Source: Bilabrum cf. latius
Lineage: Eukaryota
Assembly (NCBI GenBank): GCA_965178125.1
Contig: OZ237750.1
Span: 992,001-1,056,000 of the forward strand
Direction: 5' to 3'
DNA: 64,000 nucleotides
Positions 54 through 64,000 of this stretch are shown piece by piece. The position numbers and the translations under genes were made by a program. The notes below the pieces were generated by a model. The model was not told the origin of the DNA. It worked only from the letters and a program-made list of their open reading frames with translations, and searched no databases. Positions within the stretch are counted from its first letter, which is position 1. Every line of letters begins with the position of its first letter.

Positions 54-3000
54 ATGGTAGAAAGTGTCAGGTATGACTCGATTTTCGACAGCGGCGTTCC
101 GGCGGCGTTTCGAGCGACAGTCTCGCTTGAAATCATCAGCGACGTCATGCTGTTTGCTGCATACGCTGCAATTTCTGTGCAGCTCTTTCTGCATTCAAGG
201 GCCGCCCTGAAAATGATAAAGTCGGTAGATACGAATGGACCAATTGCCCAGGGGAGCCTTCTGTTTCAACTATTCGTTGGAGCGTGCGGGATGACACACC
301 TGGGGATGGGCCTCTCGAATGCCGTTTTGCACACGTCGGCGATCATGCAGGCCGTCAACATGGTGTTGAAGTTCATCTGCGCATGCATTAGCTGCTATAC
401 AGCTGCTGTTCTCACCCCCACCCTGAAGCTCGCGGTAGAAGCGCTTTCCAAAGAGCACAAGAGAGTGATTCAGCTGCAAGAGCGCAGCGAGGAGGCGCAC
501 ATTGGGGTGAGCGTGCTTTCCTTCCTCAATGCGCACAGGCGCAATACAAGATAGGTAACATGCTTGTTTCCATGTGGCTTTATTTCGTTTCCCGCAGTCA
601 GAGCAACTTCGATACGTGTAGGACGAGATTCGGCACCAGGCCGACCAGGTTTCTACGTCAGCGGATATCGTACAGGTGCTTCACGCCGCTACTGCAAGTC
701 TGACCAGGCTATCACCGTATGTTGAAGCAGCAGTCGTGATTCCAGCACTACCCAGGTTCAAGCAGACCCAAAGTCGCAGCGGCACCACGGACAAGCAGTC
801 AGACACCGCTCCGCAAGACGAGATCGACCCTACCCGCAGCTCGGGGGATCCCACCACGCCAAGCAATGGGCGCGGGTCCAGTGCTGGATTAAGGTACGCG
901 TCAATCTCACCAAGGGGGTCGGAAATGAAGAACGAAGCGAGCGCCTCCGTGTTTCTGGTGGCTGCGCATGTGCAGGCAGGGGTGTTCGAATCGATCGGAT
1001 CGCAAGAAGACGATTTCAGCGCCAGCTCGCCAAACGACTCCGCACCGAATGCTGGCGCAAGTGCACCAAGGAGTGCAGCAAGATCGACTCAGATCCTGCC
1101 CTCACCGGTCCCGTCGGGGCTTCCGGCCCGCGGTGCAGCTGTCCAACAGGGAGCCGCGGCTCCCCTAGTGCCGACCCAATCGGGCCGGAAGGGCAAGCAA
1201 ATGACCCTGACCACGGTTTCGAAGACAAACTCAAGATCAATCAGCAGAAACATGGGGCAGAAGAGCGTGATCGACAACACATCGGCCGGGCAGAGCAACG
1301 GGGCGGTCATCCAGTCGGTGTTCGGCCGCATGGACAGCCCGCTCTCGGGCCAGGCGCAGCTCGCCCTCAGCAAGCTCATCAAGAGGGACGAGCTGGTCCT
1401 CGTGCCGCCCGACCTCGAGGCACGGCTGCTGGGCCAGCTGGTCGCGGCTGGGGCGGCGGGCCCTCTCTTTGCCATGCGACTGTCGTTCCCCAAGCGGGTC
1501 ACGGCCGCTCTGGTGGGCAAGGGCCAGAAAGCCGTCAAGGATTCGGCGCTGTACGGCGGCGTCGCGAAGAGGAGCACCAGCACTACCAGCGACGACGACG
1601 GATAGAGCGTTTCAATGGAGCCCGCTGCAGGGGAGGCAGGGACTGGCGCCGAAAACACCAGCCGGATGACAATCGAGCAGCGGCTGGAGCGCCGCAGGAA
1701 GCGCCTGTTGCTGCGGCCCACATCGCTCGTGCTCGACAAGACTCTCTCCAACGCGATGCAGACGGCCCTGTCCAAAGTCAAGGGGAGAGACGTTGCCGTG
1801 CATGACGAAGGGGACGGGGAGGAAGACGACGGCAGCGTCCTGTTCGGAAAGGATGGCTCAAGCAACCTGGAGGCCCATGAACCCATGACGGGCTTGTCCA
1901 CAGAGGAGCGCAAGCCCACTGCCTCTGGCGAGCACGGGTCCAGCAGCGGCGACAGTGGGATCCGCAGGCCACGCAAATCGCAAGAGTCAGCCGTGGGCAT
2001 CGTCCTGGTGCGAATCCGCCAGGACATCTACGACAAGGCCAACAGGCAGTCCTAGATTCATGGCATGCCCCGCTTCATGCGCAGCATGCTCGAGCGAGTC
2101 AGGGCGCAGCTCGAGCTGTCTGTTCTGCAGAGCGACGCAGCGGTGGCAGAGAGACAGTTCCTAAAGCGGACAGCCAAGCTAGAGCGCAAGCGCAGGGAGG
2201 CCTCGCAGACCTTCCTCGCCATGATGAGCCGTGAGTCTTGCCGCTCGCTTTTGGCGCTGTTTCCTTCAAGGGTTTGCGTGTAGGCCAACATCTCGCATTG
2301 TTTCATCTACTTATGATTCTGGCTTTCTCTCGCAGACGAGCTCCGGACTCCATTGCACGCCGTCCTGGGGTACAGCGAGCTGCTGCAGGCCAGCGAGACC
2401 CAGCTGCAGGACGAGGACCTCGAGTTCCTGGGCACCATCAAGGCCAACGGGCAGCAGCTGCTGAGTCTCATCAACGACCTGCTGGACCTGACCAAGGTGG
2501 ACTTGGGCATGCTCGAGCTGGAGCACAGGCCCCTCGATATCCAGGCCGTGGCGGAAGACTGCGTGCACATCGCCGCAGGACGGCTCCAGAACAAAGACAA
2601 GCCGCTCGTGGCGCCCTACCTGCACTGCATTGTGGACCATGACGTGCCCAGGCTCGTATACGGGGATGTAGCACGCATTCGGCAAGTGCTCGTGAAGTGA
2701 GTTTTAGTGCAACGACGTGCCTGGCTGTCCAGACTGCCCATTTGCTGTCTCACTAGCCTACCGCTTCTAGCCATCCCTTGACCATTCTCTCCCAATCGTT
2801 GCAGCTGCCTCGGCAACTCTGCCAAATTCTGCGAGACGGGGCACATCTCGCTGCGGGTGCGCAGGCTTGGTCTTGAGGTCCTCCAGGAGTACGTCGGCAT
2901 CTTCGACAGCACGATATCGGGGTCTCCGCATGCCGCGGCAAGGAGCGGCTCCAGGTCCCCAGAGTCCCCTGCACTTGCATCTTCGCTGGGTGACACCGAC

Positions 3001-5256
3001 CCGCTTCCGATGCTGCACAGCACCGGAAAGCTAGCTCAAGCGCTCTAGCCCGACTCCAAGCCTGGTCAACCGCCCAGCCAGACCGGCGACCGCGAGAGCA
3101 GAGGAACCGTGGCCCGATTTCGGAAGGCCTTCGCTGGAATGCTTCGCAACGTGCCAGGCAGCAAAGACGCTGACGCCACTGGGATGCGTCGCCGAGAAGC
3201 CGCCCCGCTATTGCTCGAAATCAGCGACAGCGGGATCGGAATCGCAGCCGAGACCGCAGACAAGCTCTTCCAGCCGTTTGTGCAGGCGGACACGAGCACC
3301 ACCCGCAAGTACGGCGGCACTGGGCTGGGCCTCCCCGTGGTGGCCAAGCTGGTCAAGATCATGAAGGGGTCCCTCTGGCTGCTGGCCAGGCCCGGTCAGG
3401 GCACCACCTTCCTCCTGGCCATACCGTGCGTGGCTGCCGAGCCCGACGCTAGCTTGGCGGCCGGCGGGATGGCTCCCCGTCGGAGGTCCAAGCCGCCGGT
3501 GTTTGCGCGCCCGCTCGGCAGCATGCACGGGGCCGCCACGAGCAGGGGCAGCAACGCCACCATGAGCAGGCAAGGATCGGGGGCCTCGGGCTCCACCGGT
3601 CCGCGCCTGTCGGCGGGCGCCAAGGCTGCGATCGGCCTGCGGCCCGATTCCCCTTCCGAGACGGGAGGGAGCCACGAAGACCTGAGCAGCAACGGGTCGG
3701 TGCTAGGGGGACTGGCCGGAGCAGGCGGCAGGGGATCTCGCACGCAGCCCAAGCACTTTTACTCGCGGACGGAGAGCCTGGCGTCCATCAACGAGGTGGA
3801 AGAGCAGCCGCATGCCATCGTGGTGGCTGATGACAGCCTCACCGCTGCGGCCTATGCGAACACGCTGGCATCAGCCGGCGCCACGCTGATCGCTACGAGC
3901 ACCGTGTCGAGCGAGCAGATGAATCTGGATCTCCGCAAGCTGGCCGCGTGTGGGTGCGGCGCCTTCGCCACGGGCGAGTCTCAGAGGCACGGGGCCTCGG
4001 CCTCTCCCCGGCTCTCCTCTCTGCTGGTGCAGCTGCAGGCCCTGGACGCGCAGGACCTGCAGCGGGCCCGTCTGGACTCGACGGTCGAGAGGAGTGATGA
4101 CCTGCCGCCGCTCGCGTCCATCTTTGTGGCGGTGGATGCGCGAGTGGCGCTGCGGGATGAGACGGAGGCCTTTGCCCTGCAGGAGATCGCGTAGCGGTGC
4201 CGGGTGGTGCTGGTCTCTCCCCCGGGTGTGTCGAGCATGTCGAGCCAGCTGGGCCTGAGCAGAGCCACGCTTGAGGCCATCGTGACGGCGCCTCTCCGAG
4301 GGGAGCGCATGACTTCCATCCTCAACCGGCCGGAGCAGCCAAAGGCGGGCCGGCCCGCGCCTCGTGTCAGCTCAGCCGAGGGGCCCGTCCCGGTCCAGCT
4401 GCTGTCATCAGCCAGCCCAGTGGTTCCGGAGGCGGCGCCGAGCCCTAACGCAGGGGCTTCCGGGAAGAAGCGCCGACGCGTCGTCAAGAAGAGGAAGAAG
4501 ATGCAGCGCGAACAGGAACAGGGCCACGCACAAGAACCGTTCACTGTTGCAGAGGTGCCTCAGCAGCACGGAGCTGCAAGCCTATCTGGTCAGGTTGAAG
4601 ACGATAGGTAGGCAGGCGAGCAGAGACACTCGCGGGATTCCTCCTAGCCGAGGTCGAGCCAGTCCCGGCACAGCCTGCAGGACGGCATGGAGCCGCGAGC
4701 GGAGCCGGAGCCGGAGGATGGCGGTATGTCGGTGTCGGCGAGGCGGCGCAGCATGCTGCAGTCCTTGTCGCGCAAGGAGTCTCGGGGTACGATAAGCAGC
4801 CTGTCCTCGAGCATGGAGGAGTTGGACTACTCGAGCATACGCGTGCTCGTGGCGGAAGACAATCCCGTCAACATGCGGCTGGCCACGACCTTCCTTCGGC
4901 GGCTGGGCGTCCAGGTGATCGACAAGGCAGAGGACGGCAACATGGCGGTGTAGCGCATGCAGGAGTCCTAGTACGACCTGTGCTTCATGGACATCCACAT
5001 GCCGCACTGCGACGGCATCGAGGCGGCCAGGCGGGCGCAGGACCCCAAGGTGGTGCCCCCAGCCAACCTCCCTCGGATCGTGGCCATGACGGCCTCTGTG
5101 CAGGAGAAGGACGTGCGCGATTCGAGGAGGGCAGGGATGCAGGGCTACATCACCAAGCCGGCATCCGTCGCGGATTTCGACGGGGTGCTGAGGCCCCTGG
5201 TGGCGGCCAGGATGAGGTCAATCCGGATGCACTCCGGGGAGCACTCCCGCACGTGA
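54..5256 (+). CDS. Ethylene-receptor-like hybrid histidine kinase (3-TM ethylene-binding-like domain, HisKA, HATPase_c, receiver); 4 exons, TAG read as Gln
   Basis: N-terminal ISDVMLFAAYAAIS / FVGACGMTHL / LKFICACISCYTA resembles the ETR1 TM1-3. GT-AG introns 507-597, 2231-2335 and 2697-2804 rebuild the H-box MMSHELRTPLHAVLG and the N-box RQVLVNCLGNSAKF. G-boxes DSGIGI and YGGTGLGL; receiver VLVAEDN..FMDIHMP..MTA..TKP. In-frame TAG at 619, 1603, 2053, 3046, 4192, 4609, 4645, 4951, 4969; ends TGA. Confidence 0.9.
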
Positions 5257-5394: not shown

Positions 5395-7254
5395 TCAACT
5401 TCCGGCTCCCCCGCCGGCTGCAGTCGCTGCGCCCCCAGTCGCCGCTCCTGGCGACGCACCAGCCCCACGTGCCCCTGAACCGCCGCTCGGACGCACCAGG
5501 AAGCTCGCATCCTCGTCAAAGACCAGGTCGGCCCCTTCATCGTCCTTCTTTCCCTTGTAGGACCAGTCTCCCACGCTGCGCACGTCTGGTCCCACGGCAG
5601 GTGACTCGGGCCCCCGTACGGCCATCATCACGTCGAAACCGGCTGCGCCCTTGCCCAGCCCGCCAGCGGCAGCGCCCCCCCCCTCTGCTTCCTCCTCGTC
5701 CGAGCTGTCTCCCAGCCCGATGAGGTCTAGTGCATCCGCCACGTCCTCCCTCTCTCTGATCTTCTCCTGCTTGCGGGCCCACGCCTTCTCCAGGCCCTTG
5801 GTCTCCACGGGCCACCGGCGGTGCAGCAGCCTGGCGCCGCAGCCCTCCCGCGGACACATGCTGGGCCAGGGCGGCCTCCTCATCATCTCGTCCAGGGGGG
5901 CCAGGTGGAACCAGTGCCCGCAGAAGGCCCGCACTGGCAGCCTGGGAGATTCCTTCTTGGCCCCTGCAGTGGACATGACCTTGGACAGGGCGGGGGGAGA
6001 CCGGGGAATCAGACGGCGATGAGACAGGCAGCAGCGGGCCCGGGGGAGGTAGAGCGCGAATCTGCACGCGAGCACGTACGCTGCCACCCATAGGCTGGGC
6101 CTTGCTCTGCTCAGGGGGGCATCCACTCGATCCATGGCAGCTTCCGCCGCTCGTAGGGCAGCGCTGTCCTCGTCCTCCTCACCATCCGATGCATCCGAGT
6201 CACCATTAGGGGCAGCACGGCCTGCGGCTGACTTGGTCCCTGCCCCGCCTGCAGCGGCAGATGGCACCTGTCCCGCCGCCGCCACTGCAGCTGCCACGGC
6301 GCCCGCCTCCTCCACGGCCTTCTTCCGCAGCTCCGCTTCCGCAGCTGCGAGGGCAGCTTCCTCCCGCGCCAGCTCCCGCTTGATGGCCCGTTTGAGCTCC
6401 TTGCGGGCCGCCTTTCGCTCTGCGGCGGAGTTGGCGTGCCGGCGGGCATCGCCGTGCTGCCGCTTGTCGTTGATGGCGTGCAGCTCCTTGGTGCGCCGGT
6501 AAAACGCCAGGTCGCTCTTGAGACCGCGCAGCGATTCGGCCGTGACCTTGGCCACTGCCGCCTCCGCGTCCTCGCGCTTGATCTTGCCAGGCAGGCGAAC
6601 GGGGTTGCTCGCTCCCATGGCCACGTCGGGCTCGACACCCGCTGCGCATCTCCGGCAAGCGTCGTTTGCTTGCGAGACGAACGGCTACACGAGCTCCTTT
6701 GGGAAGTTTGTGGTTTTAGATGCCACCTTGATCCCTACCGGGACGTCAGGGTAGGCATCGGGAACCGATAGAGTGACGGAGAGGGCGTACTCGCCGCACT
6801 TCAGAGCGAGCCGGATTGAGCCAGACTTTTCAGAGGCCTTTATCTCGGATGGCGGACTTGCTTTCACCAATGCTTTGACCATTTTCACTTCTGGATAGCA
6901 GTATAGAAGCCTGGATTTGCTCGCTTCCAGAAGAAACGAAAATGAGGCGGCTCCTTGCGGAAGCGAGCCAACACTCGCTTTCTTGGCAGCTGCTTCGCAG
7001 CCAGCCATAAGTTTCCTGACAAGCTCAGGAGCGAGCTGGGGCGCTTCAACTTCACATGATACCCTGGTTGACTTGTCGGTGCCGAACGATGGCGGATATG
7101 TCAGCTTCAGTTGCGTGCGTTGCCACGCAGTCCGCCCCACGACGAGCCTTAGCCCGCTCGATGTCACAGTCCGCACTGCACCAGGCGGAGCAGCATCCCG
7201 TAGTGCAGTAACCTCACGGTTGAACAATTTCACATACTCCGGGGTCTTCTCCAT
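5395..7254 (-). CDS. RWD-like domain protein with C-terminal degenerate RING-like motif (putative E3-ligase-related)
   Basis: ORFs 6685-7329 and 5395-6624 are in the same frame and join across TAG 6685. LTYPPSF and SVPDAYPDVP are RWD-like YP motifs; FCGHWFH...CPREGC is RING-like. ATG 7254, TGA 5395. Confidence 0.6.
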
Positions 7255-7420
7255 GCCCCTATGCTGTGTCGGTTCAGCCCGAAAGGCGAACGCTGTTTGG
7301 CTCCGAGTGGATCTCGACCCTTTGGCCAAGTTTGCGCCACAAACGCAGGCAGTTGCAAGTGGGGTGCAGCGGTGTTTTTGTCTACGCGCGCGCAGTCCGT
7401 GCCATCTCCCTCGCCCCTCC

Positions 7421-9568
7421 TCATTGTCCCTTCTTCACCCTCACGAGCCGCACTGCCGCGTTGGGGACCAGCCCCGCCTCCTCGAGCGTCTCGTCGTCGT
7501 CCTGGTAGGCCCGGTTCGGATACGCGGTCCGGATCTGGTACGGCTCGTCCTTTTGCCGGTACTGGTCGATGGCCCGCCGCAGGTCGCCCACGGTATCGGT
7601 GAAGAAGAGCTTCACCAGGATCTTCTGCCTCCCAGAGTCGCTCTTCACCTGCAGCGTTGACACGTCCGGCGGGCACAGGCTGCTACCGCTGCCGCTCTCG
7701 CTCTCCTCCTCTGCGCCAGTCCCCTGTCTCCTATAGCCGCCTTCTGACTGCATGTGCATGGCCCTGGCCGTGGAGGACTCGCCCGAGACCTGCACCTCCT
7801 CCTTCCCCCTCGCGCTCTGCGGCCGGAAAGTCATGCCCAGGGGGTCAGCAGTGCCCCTCTCCGATGCTGCTCGTGTCCCATCGCTCGCACCCCCCTTGCT
7901 GCCCCTGCCCCCCTCCCTGTTCCCCCGCAGGCTCCTCATGGCCCGCGTGTCGGCCAGGATCACGCCGCCGCCGTCCTGACGGCCCCAAGACCCCCCTCCA
8001 CTCTGGCTGGCACTCGCAACATCGCCCGCCCTGCTTGTTCCCTGAATTGCGCTTTTTCCACCCCTGGCCATGGCATCTGCCACGCCGTCCCGAATGGACA
8101 CGACCCGTCCGCCACTCACAGCTCGCTCCGACAGCCGCCCTAGCAACCGGTCGCGAGGCAGGGGCAGCGGCATCTCGTCGCTGCCCCCCAGCCCGGCAAG
8201 CTTGCCCAGCGCGCCCCCCAGCCCGGCGCCCGCCCTCGCGCGGCTGTCGCTGGGACCTGACCGTGAGGGCTTCTGCAGCCTGGGTCCCGGGGGTGGTCGG
8301 CCCCCCGCACCGGATGCCACTCCGGCCTCTCCGCTGGCTGCAATTGCACCTGCATGCACTGCACCTGCACCGATGCCTCCCCCGCTGGACGACTTGGCCC
8401 CGCCCACGCGCGCGCCCGGCCCCGCGAACGGATCTCTCCCCCCTCCAGCGCCTGTCTGCTTCTTCTTCCCATCCTTGCCACCACCGCCTTGTTCCTTACC
8501 GGCCCCCGCCCCAGCCCCAGCCCCAGCGCTTGCCGCCTCCTCCATGGTCCTGCCCTTGGGTCGGCCCGCCCTCACCCACTCGTCATACCTCAGGTCCGAG
8601 TGGTCCGCCATCTGCAGCACCACACCCCCGGGGTGCTCCTGCTTGAACTCGGCGGGAAAGTACCCGTCCAGCACGTCCGCCAGGAACGCCTGGTTTGCGC
8701 GAAGCTCGGCCGCGGTCGGCTGCTGGCTCTGGCTCTGGCTCGCGGTGCCGCCGGCGACAGCACCCTCGGGGCCCTCCCCCCGGGCCCAGAGCGCCCTGAA
8801 CGGGCCCCGCCACAGGAGGAAGCCATCCCGGAATAGCGCGAAGGGGACGCGGGGGGCCTCTGCCAGCCGGGCAGCGCCGGCGGAGTCCTTTACGATGCGC
8901 TTGGACCCTTCGCCCGCCCTCCTGTTTAGCGCTTCCACGCGCTGCCAAAGAACGAGAGCGTCCCGGGCGGGCTGGAAGCCAGCGTACCTGGTTCCGTCGG
9001 TGGCCTCGTCGAGTGCACCGGCCTGGGAATCGCTTGTGTCGTCGTCCCCAACCCATACCAGGCCATAGTCTGACAAAAAAGTCTCCATGTCGAACACTTG
9101 TGCTCGAAGTCGCTCATTCTCGTCCCTGAATGCTTCCATTTCTTCAGCAAGCTGCTAGTTGCCGGAAGAAGCAGCAGCACGCTCCGCTGCGTCAAGCCGC
9201 GCTCGCAGTCTTATGCACTCCTTCTCCTTAGACACCAATGCATCTCTCAATTGTCTGCGGCTGTTCTCGAGAGTGCGCAGTCTCGCTGTCATCATGGTCA
9301 GGAGGTCCTCGCCCCTGCTATCTGCTGTGCTACAACTGCTGGGCACCTGCGGAACGTCGGGTTCGGCAGGAGGTGCAGGCCTAGCCTTCGATTGGTCTCT
9401 ATCTGCTCCAACTGGGCCGGGACTCTGTTCGCCGGGACGCGTCCTAGCCCTGCGCAAAGGCAGCCGATCGTGACGTTTCGCAATCGATCCAAGCTTTCTC
9501 GAGCTCCCGGATCCGAACGCCCGACTGAACATGTCCCGCTCCGACTGAAATGGATCTGCAGAACTCAT
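7421..9568 (-). CDS. UBXN11: UBX domain-containing protein 11-like (coiled coil, SEP, C-terminal UBX)
   Basis: Motif QVFDMETFLSDYGLVWVG; SEP-like LFRDGF..GPFR..FLADVLDGYFPAEF; UBX TVGDLR..RTAYPNRAY..TLEEAGLVPNA. Joined across TAG 9155; ends TGA. Confidence 0.85.
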
Positions 9569-9747
9569 GGGCGGCTACCAAGCGGGTAAATATGCGCTGC
9601 AAAGAGTCTGAACCTGCGACCTTCGTCAACTGCTCGCAACGCGGCGCCGCGCATCGCGAACGATCCACGGTTCCGCAAGAACTGCGGAGGGATGATAGGT
9701 CTGAATACGATCTCTTGGGTGATTGCGGCGACCGGAGCTATCAACAA
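9569..9747. promoter_or_regulatory. Putative short bidirectional promoter (UBXN11 / RhoGDI)
   Basis: Divergent starts about 180 bp apart. Similar arrangements at 41592-41711 and 63145-63312. No motif identified. Confidence 0.45.
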
Positions 9748-10620: not shown

Positions 10621-11154
10621 GGTTGCAAGCTGCTCAATTCTGTGACTTCAAGGGCAATGGCTGGCCTGAGTTGGAGTTGGGGGTCTGCCGGTTAGCTCAA
10701 TAACAAACTAACGTCGTGAAACTCATGCACTACACATCTGTGTCATCACCATGCTCGCATCATGATGTCTTCATCACACGCATCATCACAATGCAACGCC
10801 GCAGCAAGCGATGTCCTCGGCATAGGACCAGACTGTGCAGCTTTCGGTTGGCTGCAGAGGGTGCAAATTGCAATTTAATAACTCTCTTCCTCTCATGGGA
10901 AGCTGTTTTTCCGTTTCTGGATCGTCTGGCAGTGTCAGGCATGTCGAGCATTCTCCACAAATCGTAAGTCGAAGTGCTCTGGGGTCCCGCAAAGCACCAA
11001 GAATAAGAACGGTTGCAAGATTGAGTGAAAACAGGTTTTAAATCGCGATAAATTGCTTGGGATTATTGATTGCCCCGTGATGCCCGCCGGCGGGAACTCA
11101 GCTCGCCATCACATCAGTGTTGTAGAGCGAGCACCATCCCATCTTGTGTGAGCT

Positions 11155-12585: not shown

Positions 12586-12737
12586 TCGTGAAAGGCGGTC
12601 AAGTCAATGAAGCCTAGGAATGCAATTCGCGGAAGCTTCCGCGGACAGTTCCCCGAGGTAGGACCGAAGCGGCGATCGGAGCAGGATTCGACCCGCAAGC
12701 CTCACACCCAGCTCAAGCCAGACCACTTGAGCGCGAC

Positions 12738-41591: not shown

Positions 41592-41711
41592 AAATCTTAG
41601 TGCGCTTCTGCCATCTTTGTGGCCACTCTATGCCTTTGTTTTACTCCATTTCTCCCGGCGACGTGGTCGTCATTGCACTGTAGCACCGGAATTTGGCCAT
41701 TTTGTCGACCG

Positions 41712-52955: not shown

Positions 52956-54622
52956 GGTGCAACAATTCTGTAAGATCCACGCAAATTAGCGGTTCTCGAA
53001 CCCAGACCGGAACCGTCATCCTCATCCTGTTCCAGCGCGTTGCCCCGACAAGTCTGCGGTTCGAGCGAGACCCAGCCCTAGCAGCGGATCTATCACGGAC
53101 TTGCACATGGCCTACCCGCCCCGGCGAATTCCAGCAGCACGGCCCAACCGAGGCTCCGAGTCCGAGTTGCACTCGCGGCGCTCATCATGCAGCGTGCACC
53201 TAACCACTGGCAGTGGCCGCTTGTGCTCCGCCGGTGGCTCCCCGTGCTGCCTCGACCACATAATCGGTCTACCGGGCCACTGAAGCCCAAACCAAAGATT
53301 GGCTTTCATCAACATCATTGTCGCTGTGGCTATCACTCCGCTACCGAGAGAACCCGCGGTCAGCTCTTCCAGTGGCGTCAAAGCGTCGAGTAGTACTACC
53401 CGGCCGTGGCGGAGCAGGGGCACGGGCACGGGCAGGGGCACGGTACTGGTACTTCGTACTTGCCGCACTGTCTGTATTCTATGAGGCCGAAATCTCTGAG
53501 CACCGTGGCCAAGGCCAACCAGCTCTACAGGTACAGAGAAGGAGTTATCATAAATGCAAATATATTGAACCCAACGTAGCATACCAGAGCAATGAAATAC
53601 GCCAACTCCATCTATGGACTGTTTTCTGCAATGTACTGTTCCCAACTACTGTCAGTACTACCTTGTCTCCACTTAGCGGCGCCAATGCCGCCGACTGCGA
53701 AGAAAGCCGTAAGCGGCAGGATCAGACTGACCCAGCACCAGAAGGTGACAATTGCGGTGAGCCGCTCATCGCACCTTTCGGCAAAAACTGAAATCATGAT
53801 GCACACGATCCCAATCACTAATGGCGCATTAATAATGCCAGCCTGTGCCATCCGCAGCACGGCCACAGGAAACCAGCTCTTTGTTTCGTACCACACATTG
53901 TCCTCCGCGCCTGGCACGTTGCAGTAGTCCGTGCCCGTCTTCTAGTACTCGATGTCCGAGGCATTCACGCCTTCACCCAAAGCAGCGTCTGGCAGCGTAC
54001 CAGAAACAGAGAAGGAAGGCAGCCCTGACGAAGCCATCTCATTCGAAGGATACACCCACACCAATAACTCAGATGCGGGCCCTGTCATCGTAAGGTTCCC
54101 ACCCGTGACGAGGCTTGTCCAATTCGCCAGCGTAGTAGCTTCCGAGCGGATCAAGGCCATGGCATCGTCGTCAGACGCCCCATCGCCCAGTATAGCCTTA
54201 GCGTACAGCAGACCACCGTCCTATCTCACTCTTATGCGAGCATTGTACTTTGGGCCGGAACTGGATGCATTCAGAATGTCGTACACGTCGCCGATGACAC
54301 ACGAAGTATCGAGATGATCAACATCCCAAGCTATCAAGCCGGTTCCAAGCAGTATGGCAGAGGACACCATGTAGGCAAGGAAACACGCGGTGAAAATGTA
54401 AAATAGCACATAGGTAGCACAACCACGTTGCGCCATGGTGCAACAATTCTGTAAGATCCACGCAAATTAGCGGTTCTCGAACCCAGACCGGAACTGTCAT
54501 CCTCATGCTGTTCCAGCGCGTTTCTCCGACACGTCTGCGGTTCGAGCGAGACCCAGCCCTAGCAGCGGATCTATCACGGACTTGCACATGGCCTACCCGC
54601 CCCGGCGAATTCCAGCAGCACG
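52361..54622. repeat. Direct segmental duplication (about 52361-53141 vs 53842-54622, offset 1481 bp)
   Basis: Long near-identical blocks covering the coding loop, the upstream region and a copy of the last codons of the SCAPER-like gene. Confidence 0.92.
53378..54436 (-). CDS. Hypothetical multi-pass membrane protein, paralog B
   Basis: Joined across TAG 54221, 53942, 53612 and two more TAGs to TGA 53378. Central loop near-identical to paralog A. Confidence 0.75.
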
Positions 54623-57600
54623 GCCTCTGTGAGCAGAGGCCCAACCGAGAGCTCCTCGCACTCGCGCACCATGCGCCAGTCGGCCTCTGCCGATACAGAG
54701 CCGCCGCTTCGATGCCCCACCCCAGCCCCGCGCCCGTCGGCACGATGGTCGATCGACGTCTGCTCCTCCCCTCCCGCTGCACAGCCTCCCGCTGCGGCGC
54801 CCCGCTGCTCCAGCAGCTCCCCTGCCTCTGCCGCGAGGAAGGCAGGAGACACGCGCCGGGCCACGACGGCCATCGCGGCGGGCAGGGCGGCGCACATGGA
54901 CAGCAGCGACGGGACGAAGCACCGACGCAGCGAGGGCCTGGACAGGAACCGCAGAGGTGCGTGTGACAGCCGGTGCAGCAGTGTGGGCTGCGTGCCCCAC
55001 AGCAGTGCCTCCTGCGCCCTCCTCTGACCCACGCACAGAGCGCCCAGACTCGCTGCAACGCACAGGAGCAGGTCGTCCGAGCAGCACTCGGCGGGCTCCT
55101 CCAGACTGCCTGGCAACGGTAACAGCCTAACGCCGCGCCCCGCCCCCCGCGCGGGTGCACGAGCCCCTGGCACACCTTCCTCCCCAGCTCCAGCTCCAGC
55201 TCCAGTCCCTGTCCCAGTCCCTTGTGCCCGCTCTGCCTCTGCCTGCGCCGCTTGCAGCAGCGATGCAAAGGTGTGCTGCAGCTGCAGCTCCAGCGCCCTC
55301 TCGGAGTGCACGGCGGCCTGGGTCTCCTTGAGTGCGACCAGCGCGCATGCCAGCAGGGCGCGGAGGGACAGGCGGGCCACCAGCACGACATCCCGAGGGA
55401 GCACTCCCTCCCCGGGGTCGGGAGACGGAGGGGCGCAGGGCTCGCCGCAGGTGCTGCTGCTTTTTCCGGGTTTGCTGCTACTGCTGCTGCTGCTGCTGCT
55501 GGGGGGTTCGATCTTCCCCTATGCTCCTGCTGCACCGTTTGTATCGCGGGGGGGTGTGGACGGCGCTTGTCGCCCTGACCCTGACCCTGCCGCCGCTGCT
55601 GCTGCTGCTGCTGCTGCTCTGGATTGCGGAGAGGAGGGTGCACGCGCCCTGGACCTCCGCTGGGAGCCGAGGGGAGACGCTCCGAGGGCGATCTCGGCCA
55701 GGAAGGCAGGCACGCCCATGGCCCCCGTCTCCGTGATGGCCGCTGCGGTGTCTGCCCTCAGCTTGGCCTGCGCGCGGCTGGTGGTGCTAGAGCCTGGGGC
55801 CGAGTGTGTCGGAGCCGCCGCCCTCCGGACTGCGGTGAGGAGCAGAGCAGACACGGACAGCGCGGACAGCACAGGATGCGCGCATCCCAGCCTGCTTGCG
55901 AGGCCACCCTGCGCCGCGCTGAGGAAAGCAGTCAGCCGCTGGGGCAGCCCGCTGGCAACAGCGTACTGCAGCACCGGCAGGTACTCGACAGGCAAGGGGT
56001 CCTCCAGGCCCCATGCAGCGCTCGATCCGGGCGCAGGGTCCGCGAGCGATGAGTCGGCATGGTCGGATGTCTCTGGCCCCGGGGACACGCTGCCCTCGCC
56101 CGGTGGCGCGTCGGCACCGGCCCCTGCCCCGTCCACGATGGGCTGCAGCAGCATGCTGAGCCCAGCCGCGGCCGCCTCGAAGGATGCTACAGTGGATAGC
56201 AGCTGTGCCCTCGCGATCCGCCGCTCGAAGGAGGCAGCCGGTTTCAGGGACACGGGAAACGAGGTGCCCAGCGCATCTGCCCGCCGCCGCCGCCCGCGCC
56301 TTCCCCCGGGCACGCCTCGCCCCTGCTGCGGCCTCCCCCCGCCCGCGCCTCCTCCGAGCCCCGCAGACTCAGTGTGCACGGCCCCATCCTGCATCGCGGC
56401 AGTGGCAGCAGCCTCGCGCGCCCTCCGCAGGCGCTCTTGCCTGTGCTGCACCATGTCATCCCTTACACTCGCAGCCAGCGCGCGGCCCTCAACGTTTCCC
56501 ACCGACTGGCTGGAGGGTGCTCTTGCACTTGGCCTGCCCGTGCTTGCCGCATGGGCGGCTGTCCCTCGCACACGGTTCGCCCGCAGTGCCTATCCAGCTC
56601 CCGCCCCACTGGTGGCAGCGTTGCCTCGCGATGCACCCGATTGCGCCATCCCGCTCTCGCCTGCCGCCCTCCTCGCCGCAGCCGGCAGCTCGCACAGCAG
56701 AGCATAGCAGTGCCCCAGCGCGTCCAGCGCCTCGGCCAGTGCGTCTACCAGCACCACAGCAAGGCCGGACCGGAGCAAGGCACGCCTGCCCTGGGGGCAT
56801 CCACACGCCAGAGACACAGTCCGCAGCGCCGCCAGCAGCGCGCGGGCCCGGCTGAGGCGCAGCAGGACCGAGGCATGCGCGTCTGCCGCCACCTCAGGAG
56901 CAACCTGCTCCGACGCACTCCTTTTATCCTGAGCCGAAGGGTGCGTCGGGGACTGCCGGGAACCGGCGACCTTGCCGCGGTCTCGCAGCTGTCCAGAGCT
57001 GAGGCTCCTGCCGGGGCCGTGCCTGGCGCTAGATCTTGAGCCCGACCGGAGCTTGGCAGAAGAGGCAGCCGCGGCAGTGAGGACCCCAGAGGGGGCCAGC
57101 ACCCCCCTGGGCAGCAGGGAGGCCACCAGAGCCACAGAGAGGGCCAGCACGCCAGAGCCGCAGACGTTGTCCACGATGCCGGCAGGGGCCAGCTGGTGCT
57201 TGGCCAGCATACGGCCGCCAAATGGCCTCGCATCCACGGCCGCAGATGCCTCCACCACCAGCCCGCCCAGCTCTGCATCGCCGCCGGCAGAAATGGAGGC
57301 AGCCCCACCCCCGGCCAAGCGGGAGCACACCGCGTGGCAACTGCTCGACAGCCCGGAGCCCAGCAGCAGCAGAAGCGGGGACGCGACCTTGCCGTCCAGA
57401 ACAGTCGGAGCCCCGCATGCAGACGCAGCGGCGACCTCGAGCCGGTGCCGGTGCCCTTTTCGACCCCCAACCTGGGCGCCAGCAGACATGCCCGCTGCCC
57501 CAACGGCCTAGCCCTGCTTAGCGCGGCCCCCTTTCCCGTCCTGCCTGGCCGCAGACAGCGCCTGCCCCGCCTCGGGCGCCTGCAGCAGCACCCCGCACGC

Positions 57601-60600
57601 CGCGAGGAGCCCAGCCAGCATCGCAGACACGGCCGACTCGCCGAGACCGGCCACTCCCGCCGTCTCTAGCCGCAGCGAGTCGGGCGCCACCAGCCCCCTC
57701 GGCCAGAGCCCCTCCTCCTCGGCCCTCCGCAGGGATGCCACCAGGAGAGCGTGGCCCAGAACGTGCTGCCCCTGCCTGCGCCGCAGGTGCGCCGCCCTGG
57801 CGGCGGGCACGTCCTGCGCCGCCAGCTGCGTCAGCCGCTCCAGCCCTTCACTGAGCGCGCACAGACGGGCGGCAGTCCTACGGGCCCGCCCCAGCAACCG
57901 CATTGACCTAGTTAGTGCCGAGTCCGCCGCGGCAGCGGAGCCACTACCGTTGCTGGACTTTGGTGCACCGCCACCGCCAGACCCCGCCACTCCTGCTCCC
58001 GACCCCGCCAGCAGCTGGTCGTGGCTGGGCCCGTCGGGGTCCACCCACGACGCGCATGGAGGGAACATGCCCTGGAACTGGAGGGACACCATGCTCTGGG
58101 CAGCGGCGGGGGAGGGAGGCACGGGGGCCGGCAGCACCGGCTTCCTCTCGTCCTGAGCACCCCCCTGAGACTCTGGGCTCCTGCGGTAGGCCCCGAAGAG
58201 AGGCAGATCGCTGGCAGAGGCCCCCTCGAGCCCCGGGCCTGCCGTCCTTTCGGCGAGCCCTCCCCCTAGGCCGAGCTCGCCACGGGGTACAGCAGCGCCC
58301 TCGCGCCTCCCAAGCAGCGCGGACACGCCCTCCGCCTCCACCCCGAACGCGACTGCAATGGTCCGCAGCGACTCGGCCACCAGGCCCTGCGCATCTGCCC
58401 GGACGAGCCGGAGCGCCGGCACGTGCAGCCGAAGCCGCTTGGCTGCCGCGGCCGAGGCCGAGGTACCCGTGTCCCTATCCCCGCCGGACAGACGGAAACT
58501 GCCGATCCCGATGCTGCGCCTCGCAGCATCTGCATCCCTGGACGCAGCGTACTGCGCGATGTCTCTGCGCGCAGTTTGCCTCCTCTTGCGCCTCCTCTCC
58601 CGCTCTTCCCTGGACACACGCGGCACGGGCAAGAAGGACGAGGATGAGGACGAGGATGAGGCTGAGTACTGGCCAGCCTAGGAGTTCCCTCCTCGGCGGC
58701 GAGCACCGTGTCTGTCGGACATCCTTACCCCTCTCGCGGCCAGCACAGACCGTCTGCCCGCACCAGATGCCAGAGAGCCAGAGTTGGAGCGGGATGCCCG
58801 GCCCTACGCGCCATGCGTGGTCCTGGGCCCGTGCAGCTAAAAGGACCCCGAGGAGGTGCGCCGGTGCGGGGGTGTGCGAGACATCCTGCTGGACCCAGCG
58901 CCTGCCCATGGCCGAGCGCCAACTCCGTGCAGAGAGCCCCCTCGCTCACGAGCGGGCGTGGATGACACAGAGGCGGGGCTCAGAGGGGCGTGACTCCGGT
59001 CGTGCAGCTGCTGGCCCCTCGAGCGTGACGTGCCACGGATCGCGGCGCTGTGGCTCTGGGCAGACCGCGGGGACGACGGGTCCGTCCGATCTGCGCCCGC
59101 ACGGGGAGAGGCGCAGCTGCCGAGGCTCGCATCGCCTGGGCCGGCCTTGCGACTGGCCTCCTGGTCCTAGCCATGCACGCCTGTGACTGGCCCATCCCCG
59201 GCTGCGGCCCGTTCCACGAGCTCCCTGAACTCCCGCAGGGTGACTGCTCCTGCTGCAGCTGCGGCGTCCTCGGCGAAGGCAGGTTGCTCTGGCGGGCAGT
59301 CCTGCGTGCCCTTCCGTTTCTTCTTCCTTCTCTTCTTCTTCTTTGGTTTGACCGCCCGATCCTGCCCAGATTCGTTGGCCAGAATGTTGCTTGAGGCTGT
59401 AGCCGCCGCACCTGTTGTCCCAGCCAGCTCATCACCACCAGCCCCCACATCCACCGATGGTCGCTGCAGGGGCCCCTTCCAGCCAAATCCGGGGGACTCG
59501 CTGTCCGCCGACGTGCTCAGCACGTGTGCAGACAAGAAGCCCCCGCCCATTCCATTTTCTGTCGTGCCGCCCGCTGTGCCTAGCAGCCGCATGCTAATAG
59601 ACAAATCGTCGCGGTCCTATACAACACCCCTCTGCCCGTCCTCCCACCCCTGCCCATGGTCGCCCTGCAGCGAGTGCTACCTACGAGACACCTTGGGCAC
59701 GATCCAGTCCCCGCCCGCAGGTGCACCCGATGATGCTCCCCCGGCCAGCGCAGTCTGCTGCTAATCCCCGTGTCTCTCCATGGACAACAAGCTGCCGTGA
59801 GATGAAGATAGGACTCCACCCGTCTAGTGCGCGATGCCTGCGGGCTGTGACAGCTACATGGAGTCTAGCAGAGGGGGGGCCGGTGCATGGCCCAGCTCCA
59901 TGCCCTCGGTGAGCGGTGACAGGGGCGGGCTGCGCACCACCTCAGCATCTCCAGAAGGCTCGCGGCTTCCTGCCTCTGTGCGCATGCGGGACCGCAGCGC
60001 GGCTCCCTCGGTCTCTCTGTCCCTGCCCCTGCCTCTGTCCCTGCCCCTGCCCCTGCCATGAACCTGCACCTGCTCCCCGTTGTCGTCCGCCAATGCGCCC
60101 AGGAGCCCGCCTGCCGCTCCACCGGACTGCGCCCCAAGCAAGCCAAGAGCACCCCCGGTCTCAGCATCATCGCCGCGAGCTACGTCTGGAGCAAACCCTC
60201 CCAACAGCGGCCCGCTCAGCTACCGGCCCTCCTCCTCCTCTTCCTGCTCATCTCTCTCGTCCCCGGACCCGTCCCCGGGCAGGGAGCCAAGCGGCGCTCC
60301 GCTGGATGCGCGTCTTCGGCGAGAGCCAGAGGGAGCGCTGGCAGCGCTGTGTCCACCGACAGAGCGCGAGGCGCTGTTTCGAGCAGCGAGAAAGCTTCCA
60401 ATGGTCATGCGCGGCGGTGTGCGGCTATACCTGCCCTCCTCATCTTCCTGGGCCGGTTTGCGCCACGCAATGCTGGTAGCCTTGGCGCGGATCGAGTCCA
60501 GGGCAGCCTCCCTTCTGCGGTCGCCCTCCTGTAGCCTCCTGGATATCTCGTGCCGCTTGGCCTGATTTTGTACCTGCAGGATGAAGCCGACTTCGTGCAC

Positions 60601-61571
60601 TTTCTGGTTCTCGGTCTCAGCCTTGCGGCGCACCTGCTCGAGGTGAGCCTGGTGCCGTCCCGCCGCCCGCTCTAGCCGCTGCGCCATGGCTGCCCCCTGC
60701 GCCTGCAGACGCCTCTCCCTCCTCTCCCTGGCCCTCTCTGCCCTCTGCGCGAGCGCCTGCCTCCGCTCCTCTCTGGCCCTCAGCTGCTTCTGTCGGTTCC
60801 TCTCGGCCTGCTGCAGCCGCTCCTGCATGGCCTCCTGCTGCTCGCGGGGAGACAGCTTCCGCTGCCGGGTCGGACTGCTCAGCTTCGCGTGCAGCAGGAG
60901 GCCTCCGGACTCGGGTGATTTGGCCCGGCGAGCAGCCGTGCGAACAACGGACTCAGGAGGCGGCGAGCAGTACGAAGCAACGGCGCCCTTGGAGGTGTGC
61001 TTGCCGACGAGTGCCCTACCCTTGGAGGTGTGCTTGCCGACGAGTGCCCTACCCCCTGCACCCGACCTCCCGCTCCGGCTGCTAGTCCCTGTAGGCCTAC
61101 TCGATCGAGTAACCTTGTCAGCTGGCCGCTTATCGCGCCTCCTGCCGCGCTTCCGCCCCTGCCTGCCCCATCCTTTCCGGTACCCATTTCCCACCGAGTC
61201 ACGGTACACGTCGCCTCCAGCCTCGGAAGATGGCTTGCCCTCGCCATGGAAGATCGACCGCCAGCTCCTGCCTCCGCCTTCGTCTGAGCTTTCCCGCTTC
61301 GACACGGCTGGAATTCTGTCCCCTCTGCTGCCAGTGAGCTCTCTGCTGCTACCTGGTAGTGTAGTGGTAGCCATGCCTCTACGCCGGGCCGCGCCTTCAC
61401 CCGCACCCGCACCCACACCCACACCCACACCCGCACCCGCACCCGCACCCGCACCCGCACCCACACCCACACCCGCACCCTCACCCGCACCCGCACCCGC
61501 ACCCGCACCCGCACCCGCACCCGCACCCGCACCCGCACCCACACCCGCACCCGCACCCGCACCCGCACCCG

Positions 61572-61610
<39 letters not shown>

Positions 61611-63144
61611 CCGCATCCTCAGGTTGTGGGCCAGGGTGCTTGTCCGGCACCTGCCTGCGCCCAGCACGCTGGTCCTCGTCGGCAGACTTACCCTTTGGGT
61701 CCTGCACGGGATTGAATCGCACCATCGCGCCCCCAGCTCCACTCGCCAGGACAAAGCCACTCATCCCTGCAGTAGAGGATCCAGTACCCCCTTGCCGTCG
61801 AGGAGGGAGCTACTCGTCCGCCTGAGCAGAATCAGGGCCAGGGCCAGGACCAGGACCAGTGGCCTGCGGGTGCACCGTCAGGGTTGTGGGGGGGCGTTCT
61901 CCAGTAGCGCTCCTCGACTGTTCTCTACCTTCCTTGCTCTTTCCCTAGGGATCGGATCCTTGTTTACCCAGTGCATGTCCCCCGCTTGTTGTACTGCTGC
62001 GGCCTCTCAGGTGCACTGCGGCCACGGCTCGCGCTGCCTCCAAAATGCTGCCGTCCCAGCTGTGTCGTCGCACCAGCCCACGAGCACTGTGCCTCTGCCT
62101 ATCACCTGTGGTCTATCCTCTGCCATGACTATCCACCCCATCTCCACCCTTGCCTCCTACACCCGTGGGGTCCTCGTCCTCGTCCTCGTCCTTGTCATCA
62201 CCTGTCTCTTCATCCGATGGATACCCCCTGCCTGGCAAGAACCCAGTGGCCCGAAGCCTGGCTTCTCTCGACAGCATGGGGGTCAGCAATGCAAGCGAGG
62301 TGTGCGCGCTCCATGCGCTCCGCACCGAGGATTCCTCCCAGCTCGGGGCCCGCAGCTACCGGGGGGTGTCTGCTGCAGTAGCAGTTGCAGTAGCAGTGGC
62401 AGCTGCAGGCCCGGAGATAGAGGCAGTGGCAGTGGCTGGAGTATTGCTGGATGCATGGTCCTGCTTGCTGTCAGATGCACTTGCGCTTGCAATTGCACTC
62501 AAGCTGGCCAGCGTGGGGGGGACCCCGAGCTGGGGCGAGCTGCGCGTTCGCACCCCAATTGCCCCAGGGCTGTTTCCGCCGCTGCGGCTGCCTCGGGACC
62601 TGGGCGGGGTGCGGGCGGGGCTATGCCCGGTGTTTGCCTGCAATAGCTGCTCTAGTCGAGCAGCGTGCTGCTTTGAGCTCCTTGCGCGGGCTGGTGAACG
62701 CCGGACTTCCCAGGCAATGGACCGTCGTTCGCGCGGAGATCGTGATGGCGAACCGGGCTCACTGCCAGCGCGACGACCCGGGGATGATTCTGGTGTCATT
62801 TCATGAATTTGAGACGCACTGCCCGCTGCATAGCTGCCACTTTCAGCGCTGTCCACGCGGACCAGTCGTTCCTGAAGAGAGGCGAAGTCTGCACGAGCTG
62901 CCTCTAGAGCATCAATGGCTGTGCGGGTCTTCGCAATATCGCTCTCGAACTCGCATAACGTATAAAGCTCTTCAATTGATCTGCGTTGGGAAACTTTTTG
63001 GCTCTTGAGATTCACAGTGCTCCATTGAATGCGCGCACAATTCGAAATCGTAGGGAGCACTCACCTGTCCATATTTCTGAACGTTGACGACCACAGTTTC
63101 CGTCTAAATGTATGAGACCGGTCATCAGAATCATGCTGACTCAT
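54574..63144 (-). CDS. SCAPER: SCAPER-like protein (S-phase cyclin A-associated ER protein), about 2830 aa
   Basis: Intron 62981-63064 rebuilds LWSSTFRNMDRSIEELYTLCEFESD (SCAPER_N-like). SIAWEVRRSP, LHAKLSSPTR and a coiled coil follow. One frame is open across 17 TAGs to TGA 54574. Confidence 0.8.
61395..61615. repeat. (ACCCGC/ACCCTC/ACCCAC)n hexamer microsatellite encoding GE/GA/GV dipeptides in SCAPER
   Basis: Direct inspection. Confidence 0.9.
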
Positions 63145-63312: not shown

Positions 63313-64000
63313 ATGAGAAGGGAAGCACGTATGTTGGCCACTAGAGGAAGTCCAGCAAACGAAGACTAGTAGTACAGCTCAATCCAACTGCAGCTTGAAC
63401 GGGTGCGTGCGCAATTCAACCTGCCCGAGCAATCCGATTTGTTGCTATTCGGTAGAGCACTGGATGATGCCAGTGATGCTGCCGCGCAAGTTGAAGCGCC
63501 GAAGGCTCGCGTATCGGTGCTTGGCGTGGTGCCGGCCTATGTGGCTCGAAGACGGAAGGAGCTAGCTGCAGGGGCCTCATCGAATGGAAGAGTTGCACGT
63601 GGGAAACGGCTTCAACCAGACAAAGTACCGCATAACCTTCTCACTGATGCTGCGGCCCAGACCATGGTTGGTTTGTCAACTGCACTGAAGCGAGCGAATG
63701 CTGGAACCTCATCTCTTCAAGAGTCTGCCATGCGCCAGGCCGCCTCCAAGCATGGCCATCGCGTTGAAACTCTGCACGAGTCTGCCATCGAAATGGCAGC
63801 TCGACCGGCCTCATCCTTAGCGGCTAGAAGCAGGACTGCCAGAGTCGGGTCGCGAGGCAGAGCTCCCATTGACCCGTCCCCAGCGAGTGCAGTCCTGGCG
63901 TCCATGCATGCGGCCCATCGCATCGGCGTCTGGCAGGCGGAAAGCCCAGCCCCAGGCGGAAGGGTGGCCGGCGCATCGCTCACTGGCAGGCCCGCCACGG
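63313..64000 (+). CDS. 5' part of a hypothetical protein running off the window
   Basis: ATG 63313/63331; tandem TAG TAG at 63367-63372, then open to the window end. Head-to-head with SCAPER. Confidence 0.55.

Follow-up and report, generated by a model that had tools for sequence, protein, structure and literature searches.

The stretch of DNA analyzed here (64,000 nt, referred to as the window) has a G+C content of 64.1%, ranging from 0.53 to 0.71 per 4 kb. Its first gene, on the forward strand, encodes an ethylene-receptor-like hybrid histidine kinase (54..5256) in which Pfam recognizes an ETR1_N domain (54-510), a HisKA domain (2317-2697), a HATPase_c domain, and a receiver domain. The exons (to 2230, 2336-2696, and 2805-5253, with a TGA stop at 5254-5256) are separated by two spliceosomal introns of 105 nt (2231..2335) and 108 nt (2697..2804), both of the form GTGAGT...CAG and both preserving the kinase frame. 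The joint 2230/2336 was found in contigs of runs X5 and X6 and not in X1, and the joint 2696/2805 in X5, whose spliced contig contains no other letters than the window over this gene. In-frame TAG codons occur at 619, 1603, 2053, 3046, 4192, 4609, 4645, 4951, and 4969. Next, on the reverse strand, lies a conserved gene without an assigned family (5398..7434) that ends with TGA and shares 64% amino acid identity with its counterpart in L001, a metagenome contig syntenic with the window; its single in-frame TAG, with first base 6687, is covered by X5, X6, and X7 contigs without any difference. The SEP/UBX-domain gene that follows (7424..9625, reverse strand; Pfam) carries TAG at 9157 and, upstream of the first ATG, at 9577, and ends with TGA. 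A RhoGDI gene (9529..10620, forward strand; Pfam, PDB), also ending with TGA, has TAG at 9820 and 10402 (PRED-TAG-YVF), both unchanged in the X6 and X7 contigs; the codon at 10402 is CAG in L001, and the TGA stop is TAA there. A third forward-strand spliceosomal intron (209 nt, GTAAGT...CAG; 10964..11172), with its joint present in X5, X6, and X7, lies at the 5' end of the next transcript. This transcript (11173..14768, forward strand), represented by a single RNA contig, comprises two ORFs without an assigned family (11152-12582 and 12567-14765) and nine in-frame TAGs (11659, 11692, 12241, 12538, 12615, 12876, 14154, 14319, and 14724).

A repeat-rich protein with two C-terminal WW domains (Pfam) is encoded on the forward strand at 18314..20707, with TAG at 18698 and, inside the first WW domain, at 20552. 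On the reverse strand are an oligopeptidase B gene (23986..26943; Pfam, PDB), which ends with TGA and has one TAG within Peptidase_S9_N (26487) and another ahead of the first ATG (26868); a TALE (KN) homeobox gene of 1977 codons (27190..33120; Pfam) with 6 in-frame TAGs; a large gene of 1687 codons without an assigned family (34060..39120) with 4; and a cation-efflux (CDF) transporter gene (39363..41669; Pfam) with TAG at 41630 and, two codons before TGA, at 39371. The alpha-N-acetylglucosaminidase (NAGLU) gene (41319..45306, forward strand; Pfam) is made up of ORFs 41319-42854 and 43258-45303 and harbors six in-frame TAGs (41598, 41739, 41934, 44035, 44260, and 44926). A minisatellite of 21 copies of a 50-bp unit also lies inside this gene. 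An iduronate-2-sulfatase-like exon with the CxPSR active-site motif (45785..45997, forward strand) contains TAG at 45815 and 45953. The remaining features are on the reverse strand: an L-lactate permease gene (47735..50692; Pfam) with TAG at 49783 and 48793, whose ORF ends with TAA; a pair of tandem paralogous ORFs (51810-52985 and 53381-54466, within 51810..54466) with 3 and 5 in-frame TAGs, two of which occupy identical positions in both copies; and a giant low-complexity gene of 2828 codons (54577..63060) that has 17 in-frame TAGs and ends with TGA.

Nearly every gene of the window thus carries in-frame TAG. In 22 ORF pieces delimited by TAA or TGA (about 19 genes, 17,352 codons), we counted 76 in-frame TAGs, 536 CAGs, and 121 CAAs. 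TAG makes up 0.4% of all codons and about 10% of the window's Gln codons, and it is present in frame at about 75% of the expectation from overall trinucleotide frequency (76 versus 101.5). In-frame TAA and TGA are absent from these pieces by construction of the ORFs (38 and 186.5 expected, respectively). With TAG read through, the longest ORF increases from 1057 aa under the standard code to 2828 aa. Pfam matches run through TAG in Response_reg (2 TAGs), Rho_GDI, Peptidase_S9_N, NAGLU, and WW, while the basis for the TAG-spanning sulfatase exon is a PDB alignment and not a Pfam match. A previous, sequence-only reading of this DNA had counted about 70 TAGs over 18 genes, which was right in magnitude. 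It had also claimed that joining frames across TAG restores intact domains, and this holds for Response_reg, Rho_GDI, and WW; the three strings that it quoted all exist, NMAV-TAG-RMQES-TAG-YDLCFMD from 4939, PRED-TAG-YVF from 10390, and VSR-TAG-VTWECP at about 20552. Its description of a GC-rich genome with spliceosomal introns likewise agrees with the 64.1% G+C and with the three GT..AG joints in contigs.

Within the window, no Rfam match and no rRNA or marker gene was found. The only named protein-search matches were to one fungus at 29% identity, one Streptomyces, and bacterial kinases, and the protein search gave no usable match for two other ORF pieces.

The retention of TAG in RNA, which had been proposed as a check, was assessed on contigs of X5 to X7. 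All three GT..AG joints (2231-2335, 2697-2804, and 10964-11172) are present in these runs, and the genomic-type run X1 lacks them. Between positions 500 and 14500, all 22 in-frame TAG sites are covered by X5-X7 contigs and none shows another letter; this comparison is one of contigs, and the RNA origin of X5-X7 rests on the splice joints, the automated typing labeling X5 "probably DNA." A genomic-type contig thus has the same TAGs as the spliced contigs, which stem from three runs belonging to two further studies; this indicates that the TAGs result from neither RNA editing nor assembly error.

We then asked which residue stands at the TAG positions in homologues, TAG being masked as X in the query. 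The column of TAG 45815 holds Q in 131 of 150 homologues (S in 13 and A in 3, with no E, K, or L), and that of TAG 45953 holds Q in 124 of 152 (E in 25). Both sites align to Q of the solved iduronate-2-sulfatase 6ioz/5fql. The sequence-only reading had placed the two TAGs exactly at these coordinates and in Gln columns, and the homologues and structures bear this out. In several other columns, the deep homologues gave no information on Q. The columns of the receiver-domain TAGs are variable and uninformative for Q, which occurs in just 7 and 6 of 150 homologues, and the oligopeptidase B column is variable among homologues; the RhoGDI column has E in human. In NAGLU, for which the protein word search gave 7 matches (3 for the giant ORF), columns 41934 and 44926 are mixed, and 41739 and 44035 are likewise uninformative.

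L001 is 66 to 80% identical to the window at the nucleotide level, has 55% GC, and contains about 32 in-frame TAGs; its 11 kb and the 64 kb of the window constitute the whole sample. An 826-aa alignment between the two takes in 6 TAGs of the window and 8 of L001, and TAG is kept in both at 619 and 3046. Seven true-frame alignments yielded 38 pairs of TAG with a sense codon, in which the partner is CAG or CAA in 16 cases; the remaining partners encode E (4), K, P, and R (3 each), A, V, and S (2 each), and G, L, and H (1 each). Against a Q background of 189/6090, the probability of at least 16 Q partners in 38 is 8.6e-15. CAG codons show the same pattern, with Q standing opposite 66 of 151. When we compared meanings for TAG by log likelihood, with substitution frequencies drawn from the same window/L001 alignments, Q scored -80.2, K -127.4, and E -129.6, and Leu and Ser were 99 and 53 units worse than Q.

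Relatives with 83 to 92% identity allowed nine TAG comparisons, in which the partner is Q three times and E, R, A, P, K/A, and N/gap once each; NAGLU TAG 44260 is Q in relative P0001. Called ORFs of these relatives start or end exactly at window TAG positions. In aligned frames, the TAG share of Gln codons is 26% in L001 versus 10% in the window. Since the relatives use TAG as the window does, the change is older than their split and is common to a small clade. Four independent kinds of data support the central claim of the sequence-only reading, that UAG is a sense codon for glutamine: TAG is kept in spliced RNA, falls in conserved Q columns, exchanges with CAG and CAA in L001, and stands at Q in the closer relatives. 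Because TAG is retained in spliced RNA and sits at glutamines of relatives, we conclude that UAG is read as glutamine.

Termination was found to rely on the two other codons. In the window TGA ends 13 of 14 ORFs, and in L001 it ends 3 of 4, at C termini that relatives share; TAA ends two ORFs, that of the lactate permease in the window and that of RhoGDI in L001, the latter TAA sitting exactly where the window RhoGDI has TGA. If TAA behaved like TAG, 18.9 in-frame TAAs would be expected in the true aligned frames of L001 and, in a small sample, 3.5 in those of the window; we found none in either. With CAA and CAG at 33:56 in L001, 32 in-frame TAGs next to no TAA has a P of about 6e-9. UAA is therefore not reassigned and still terminates. 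TAG meaning Gln, together with TAA absent in frame and ending ORFs, defines a code in which UAG specifies Gln and UAA and UGA are stops. This code, with UAG alone as Gln, is NCBI table 15.

We considered whether UAG might have a dual use, being mostly Gln but also a context-dependent terminator in some genes, as UAR or UGA is in Condylostoma, karyorelicts, and Blastocrithidia. Such a use could be suspected in three ORFs with TAG within the last 15 codons, at 39371 (CDF), 14724, and 53398, which lie 2, 13, and 5 codons ahead of TGA. With TAG at 0.4% of codons, however, a TAG would be expected in this region in about 1.2 genes, and three are not unusual. Moreover, none of the 14 window ORFs and none of the 4 L001 ORFs needs TAG as its end, all having TGA or TAA, and RhoGDI and the kinase share with relatives the C terminus set by TGA/TAA. 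We regard dual use as unlikely, although some UAGs might also serve as stops. Still less probable is a UAR code, in which UAA would also be Gln and TAA merely too rare to be seen in GC-rich genes. The sample is only 64 kb, and CAA in the aligned frames of the window has a quarter of the frequency of CAG, both of which leave room for this view; against it stand the lack of TAA in the less GC-rich L001 (0 versus 18.9 expected at 55% GC) and the TAA that ends its RhoGDI ORF at a conserved C terminus.

It is equally improbable that UAG is sense with one of the meanings known from other UAG/UAR variants (Glu, Lys, Leu, or Ser). In favor of such a meaning, Glu is second in sulfatase column 45953, aligned in human RhoGDI, and the partner in 4 of the 38 L001 pairs. 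Yet column 45815 is free of E, K, and L among its 150 homologues, L and S are partners in only 1 and 2 of the 38 pairs, and the likelihoods of K, E, S, and L are worse than that of Q by 47 to 99 units. The least probable explanation of all is that the TAGs are untranslated and reflect pseudogenes, assembly errors, or U-to-C RNA editing. Nothing was found in its favor. The complete agreement of genomic-type and spliced contigs at these sites contradicts it, as do coding conservation that extends across TAGs over 826 aa, the conservation of TAG at two orthologous sites, and frames without interruption by TGA or TAA, the ORFs being delimited by these codons.

Altogether, the window very probably belongs to the nuclear genome of a GC-rich eukaryote that has spliceosomal introns and uses UAG as an ordinary Gln codon, with UGA, the usual stop, and UAA as the only terminators. 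The decoding machinery, tRNA and eRF1, we infer entirely by analogy with other UAG-reading eukaryotes; ARAGORN found tRNA genes in neither the window nor L001. As established for such eukaryotes (PMC5304391), a tRNA-Gln with anticodon CUA would decode UAG but not UAA, and an eRF1 whose N domain has lost recognition of UAG and kept that of UAA and UGA would make this decoding effective. A plausible route would be stop-codon capture. Since UGA is by far the commonest stop (13 of 14 ORFs), UAG stops may have been rare enough to be lost, and the freed UAG could then have been captured through a one-base change of tRNA-Gln(CUG). The reassignment of UAG alone to Gln is itself already known in other lineages. 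In the literature searched, we found no GC-rich non-ciliate eukaryote with this code. We tentatively propose, as a possibility somewhat short of even odds, that the window organism, its relatives at 83 to 92% identity in public assemblies, and the environmental relative L001 form a hitherto undescribed, independently recoded, moderately to strongly GC-rich clade outside ciliates and fornicates, which would have captured a UAG that was rare as a stop under UGA preference.

Nuclear codes that split the meanings of UAG and UAA are rare and are relevant to the question why this pair of codons is nearly always coupled; UAG-only Gln is a rare variant among them, described in a few protists that are not related to each other. 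Every independent origin puts the competing codon capture, ambiguous intermediate, and tRNA loss models to the test, along with the eRF1 residues by which the third stop base is told apart. AT richness is not a precondition for reassignment, and a genome rich in GC that has a relative lower in GC and richer in TAG (26% versus 10%) would make it possible to follow in which direction codon usage drifts once a codon has been reassigned. Annotation under the standard code would shorten most proteins of this genome and of its relatives, and the relatives' proteins in databases do break off at TAG.

How does this code compare with those described so far? In the UAR=Gln codes of many ciliates, Ulvophyceae, hexamitids, oxymonads, and Amoeboaphelidium, UAA is also Gln, and in the window it is not. 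Amoeboaphelidium protococcarum, which is reported to read both TAG and TAA as Gln (PMC6299283, PMC5304391), is similar in being a non-ciliate, non-algal eukaryote that reads UAG as Gln. It differs in the meaning of TAA, a stop in the window, and in its genome of 40.5% GC (PMC10608142, Table 1) versus 64% here, and on both counts we rejected it as the identity of the window organism. The rhizarian exLh, with UAG as Leu, and Scotinosphaera, with UAG as Ser, have further nuclear codes that separate UAG from UAA (PMC5304391, PMC11687900). The difference lies in the residue, Leu and Ser being 99 and 53 log-likelihood units worse than Gln for the window TAGs.

Protocruzia and the phyllopharyngeans are ciliates, typically AT-rich and with tiny introns. 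The composition of the window and its introns of 105 to 209 nt do not look like those of ciliates. As to the code, PMC11687900 reports for Protocruzia tuzeti and phyllopharyngean ciliates that UAG only is Gln and UAA is a stop, with repeated independent origins, and on this description UAG is reassigned to Gln and UAA kept as a stop just as in the window.

The same codon table is found in the fornicate Iotanema spirale, for which PMC5304391 gives a nuclear code with UAG as Gln and UAA and UGA as stops. In this non-ciliate, too, UAG alone has become Gln, and its eRF1 is reported to carry the substitution T32G, at a residue in contact with the third base. Iotanema is described there as an anaerobic endobiotic metamonad, known by its transcriptome, with UAA as the primary terminator (PMC5304391); in the window, by contrast, UGA ends 13 of 14 ORFs. 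The window further stands apart by its 64% GC, its GT..AG introns, and its genes for an ethylene-receptor-like kinase and lysosomal glycosidases.

The window has a G+C content of 64.1% (0.53 to 0.71 per 4 kb). With TAG masked as X, Pfam searches revealed a typical eukaryotic nuclear gene content on both strands: a hybrid histidine kinase (ETR1_N, HisKA, HATPase_c, Response_reg), a SEP/UBX protein, RhoGDI, a protein kinase, a WW-domain protein, an Arf-family GTPase, oligopeptidase B, a TALE homeobox protein, a CDF transporter, alpha-N-acetylglucosaminidase (NAGLU), an iduronate-2-sulfatase-like sulfatase with several exons, and L-lactate permease. The histidine kinase (54-5256) opens with ETR1_N (E 2e-11), followed by HisKA, HATPase_c and the receiver domain, and is thus an ethylene-receptor-like kinase in a genome that does not look like that of a plant. 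No tRNA genes and no matches to Rfam families were found in the 64 kb. The window contains no marker gene for taxonomic placement, named protein-database matches to its ORFs were remote or bacterial, and an Atlas search with two ORF pieces gave no usable match. The stramenopile affinity loosely suggested by the sequence-only reading is thereby neither strengthened nor contradicted.

Reading through TAG extends the longest ORF from 1057 aa under the standard code to 2828 aa. In 22 ORF pieces delimited by TAA or TGA (about 19 genes, 17,352 codons), we counted 76 in-frame TAG, 536 CAG and 121 CAA codons. TAG reaches about three quarters of the 101.5 expected from its overall frequency, whereas neither TGA (186.5 expected) nor TAA (38 expected) occurs in these pieces, which they delimit. 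GC-rich DNA often contains long ORFs by chance, so homology is the evidence that counts most. TAG lies inside Pfam matches to the receiver domain (two TAGs), Peptidase_S9_N, Rho_GDI, NAGLU and the first WW domain, and alignments to PDB structures are continuous over the TAGs of oligopeptidase B, RhoGDI and a sulfatase exon. The sequence-only reading, which held that genes here are interrupted in frame by TAG, is borne out by these counts and domains, and every string and coordinate that it quoted was located in the window. In a pair of tandem paralogous ORFs (51810-52985 and 53381-54466; family unassigned, probably membrane proteins), in-frame TAGs coincide at two sites, RVR-TAG-DGG and IEY-TAG-KTG. 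When the gene duplicated, its presumably translated TAG codons were therefore copied with it.

Repeats account for part of the window. A non-coding minisatellite (23 bp x 59, 15333-16691) contains CTA in its unit, which explains 20 to 22 "TAG" codons in spurious minus-strand ORFs. The WW-domain protein harbors a coding repeat (30 bp x 47, AAKKAAEDEA, 18834-20248). Within the NAGLU gene lies a minisatellite of 50 bp x 21 (42708-43759; 1050 bp, a multiple of three overall), whose unit copies exon sequence coding AGLAIPRSIQAVVPD. P0001, a database fragment from an 88%-identical relative, is continuous across NAGLU without it. The array may be removed by splicing, add 350 residues to the protein, or have been expanded during assembly.

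To assign the amino acid, we used the sulfatase exon (45785-45997), its TAGs masked as X, to query 1.84 billion representatives; the top 150 homologues were then aligned. The column of TAG 45815 held Q in 131/150 (S 13, A 3, others 3), and of the 152 stretches aligned at TAG 45953, 124 held Q and 25 held E. Glutamine also occupies both positions in the iduronate-2-sulfatases 6ioz and 5fql and in arylsulfatase 6hhm, confirming the earlier placement of these TAGs at Gln columns. Other columns were variable or mixed and uninformative: both receiver-domain TAGs (Q in 7/150 and 6/150), RhoGDI (E in human), oligopeptidase B, and NAGLU 41934 and 44926; NAGLU 44260 was likewise variable (Q 3/7).

Codon-level evidence came from L001, a metagenome contig retrieved in a contig scan with P0162, a protein it encodes. 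L001 (11,046 bp, 55% GC versus 63% in the matching part of the window) is colinear with 71-10237 at 66 to 80% nucleotide identity. Seven alignments in true reading frames (kinase exons, an unknown gene, UBX, RhoGDI; 52 to 91% aa identity) contained 32 in-frame TAGs in L001 and 14 in the window. TAG stood in both at 619 and 3046 and faced a sense codon in 38 pairs: Gln in 16 (12 CAG, 4 CAA), E in 4, K, P and R in 3 each, A, V and S in 2 each, and G, L and H in 1 each. The TAG of the RhoGDI motif PRED-TAG-YVF, for instance, is CAG in L001. Gln is conserved at 50% of its own aligned positions, and CAG has a Gln partner in 66/151 cases; 16/38 is therefore what a Gln codon should show (P = 8.6e-15 against the Gln background of 189/6090). 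Using substitution frequencies from the same alignments, the lnL was -80.2 for Gln, -127.4 for Lys, -129.6 for Glu, -132.9 for Ser and -179.4 for Leu.

ORF fragments from relatives at 83 to 92% identity, P0162 left out, gave nine further comparisons. Q stood opposite TAG at 44260, 60222 and 59679 (3/9), E at 59763, R at 4951, A at 4969, P at 55521, K or A next to a gap at 44035, and N or a gap at 59619. Two fragments stop exactly one residue before TAGs 59856 and 59169, as would be expected from a standard-code gene caller if the relative has TAG there.

Seven public runs, their types not on record, contain the stretch, and four were compared over 500-14500. The X1 contig (12.7 kb) is colinear and genomic-type. 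Contigs of X5, X6 and X7, from two further studies, skip three GT..AG-bounded segments, 2231-2335 (105 nt), 2697-2804 (108 nt) and 10964-11172 (209 nt, in all three runs), which are canonical introns of the GTGAGT/GTAAGT...CAG set. Because of these joints we treated the contigs of all three runs as RNA-derived, including those of X5, auto-labelled "probably DNA". By coordinate arithmetic the first two splices preserve the frame, so that 559-2230, 2336-2696 and 2805-5253 form a single histidine-kinase ORF, open only with TAG as sense. Between 510 and 574 the window shifts frame where L001 has one uninterrupted ORF, which points to another intron or an indel. Pieces of X5 to X7 cover every one of the 22 in-frame TAG sites in 500-14500, and none of the four runs showed a letter differing from the window, although these are assembled contigs rather than raw reads, and assembly drops rare variants. 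TAG is thus retained in RNA, as the sequence-only reading had proposed to check, and the unchanged TAGs in genomic-type and spliced contigs make editing to CAG, assembly error or pseudogenes very unlikely. These spliced contigs, which match the window exactly, come from runs with two other organism labels, where the organism could be present as a symbiont, parasite or contaminant, or under a synonym.

TAA was absent from the true-frame alignments of both window and L001, where ORFs are delimited by TGA only. Had TAA been used like TAG according to the CAA:CAG ratio, the window should contain 3.5 and L001 18.9 (P(0) = 6e-9 for L001). Long window ORFs end in TGA (13/14) or TAA (1/14, lactate permease), L001 ORFs in TGA (3/4), and the RhoGDI ORF of L001 ends in TAA exactly at the TGA of the window. 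UAA and UGA are therefore terminators. A few UAGs may also terminate besides coding for Gln, as TAG lies within the last 15 codons of 3 window ORFs; however, by our own arithmetic about 1.2 are expected by chance, which is close. One of the three is the CDF transporter gene, where a TAG (39369-39371) precedes the final TGA by two codons.

We conclude with high confidence that UAG encodes Gln, as first proposed: Gln columns, L001 codon pairs and TAG in spliced contigs all support it. In this code UAG is read as Gln while UAA and UGA terminate translation, and we refine the proposal to a UAG-only reassignment common to a small clade. A tRNA with anticodon CUA decodes UAG but not UAA, and eRF1 recognizes all three stops through its N-domain (sections of PMC5304391). 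Such a tRNA would read UAG as Gln here, presumably accompanied by eRF1 N-domain changes like the suggestive substitutions of both UAG-only lineages described there (T32G in Iotanema, Ala at 69 in the rhizarian). Capture of a rare UAG is plausible because UGA is the dominant terminator. Within the aligned frames, TAG makes up 26% (32/121) of the Gln codons of L001 versus 10% (14/144) of those of the window (own arithmetic), and its use seems to drop with rising GC, consistent with TAG to CAG drift under GC pressure after reassignment.

Full-text searches of a literature collection with few subscription journals found no GC-rich non-ciliate eukaryote with UAG-only Gln. The undescribed independent origin raised in the sequence-only reading is possible. 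The relevant sections of PMC11687900 and PMC5304391 describe UAR=Gln in many ciliates, ulvophytes, hexamitids, an oxymonad and Amoeboaphelidium protococcarum, UAG=Leu in a rhizarian and UAG=Ser in Scotinosphaera. A. protococcarum is excluded as the source of the window by TAA, which is reported to be Gln there too (PMC6299283) and is a stop here, and by its 40.5% GC (PMC10608142 Table 1) versus 64.1%. Reassignment of UAG alone to Gln, as in the window, is described in the same sections for Iotanema spirale, Protocruzia tuzeti and, twice, phyllopharyngean ciliates. This type is thus already known elsewhere, and the window represents a further case of a known code variant.
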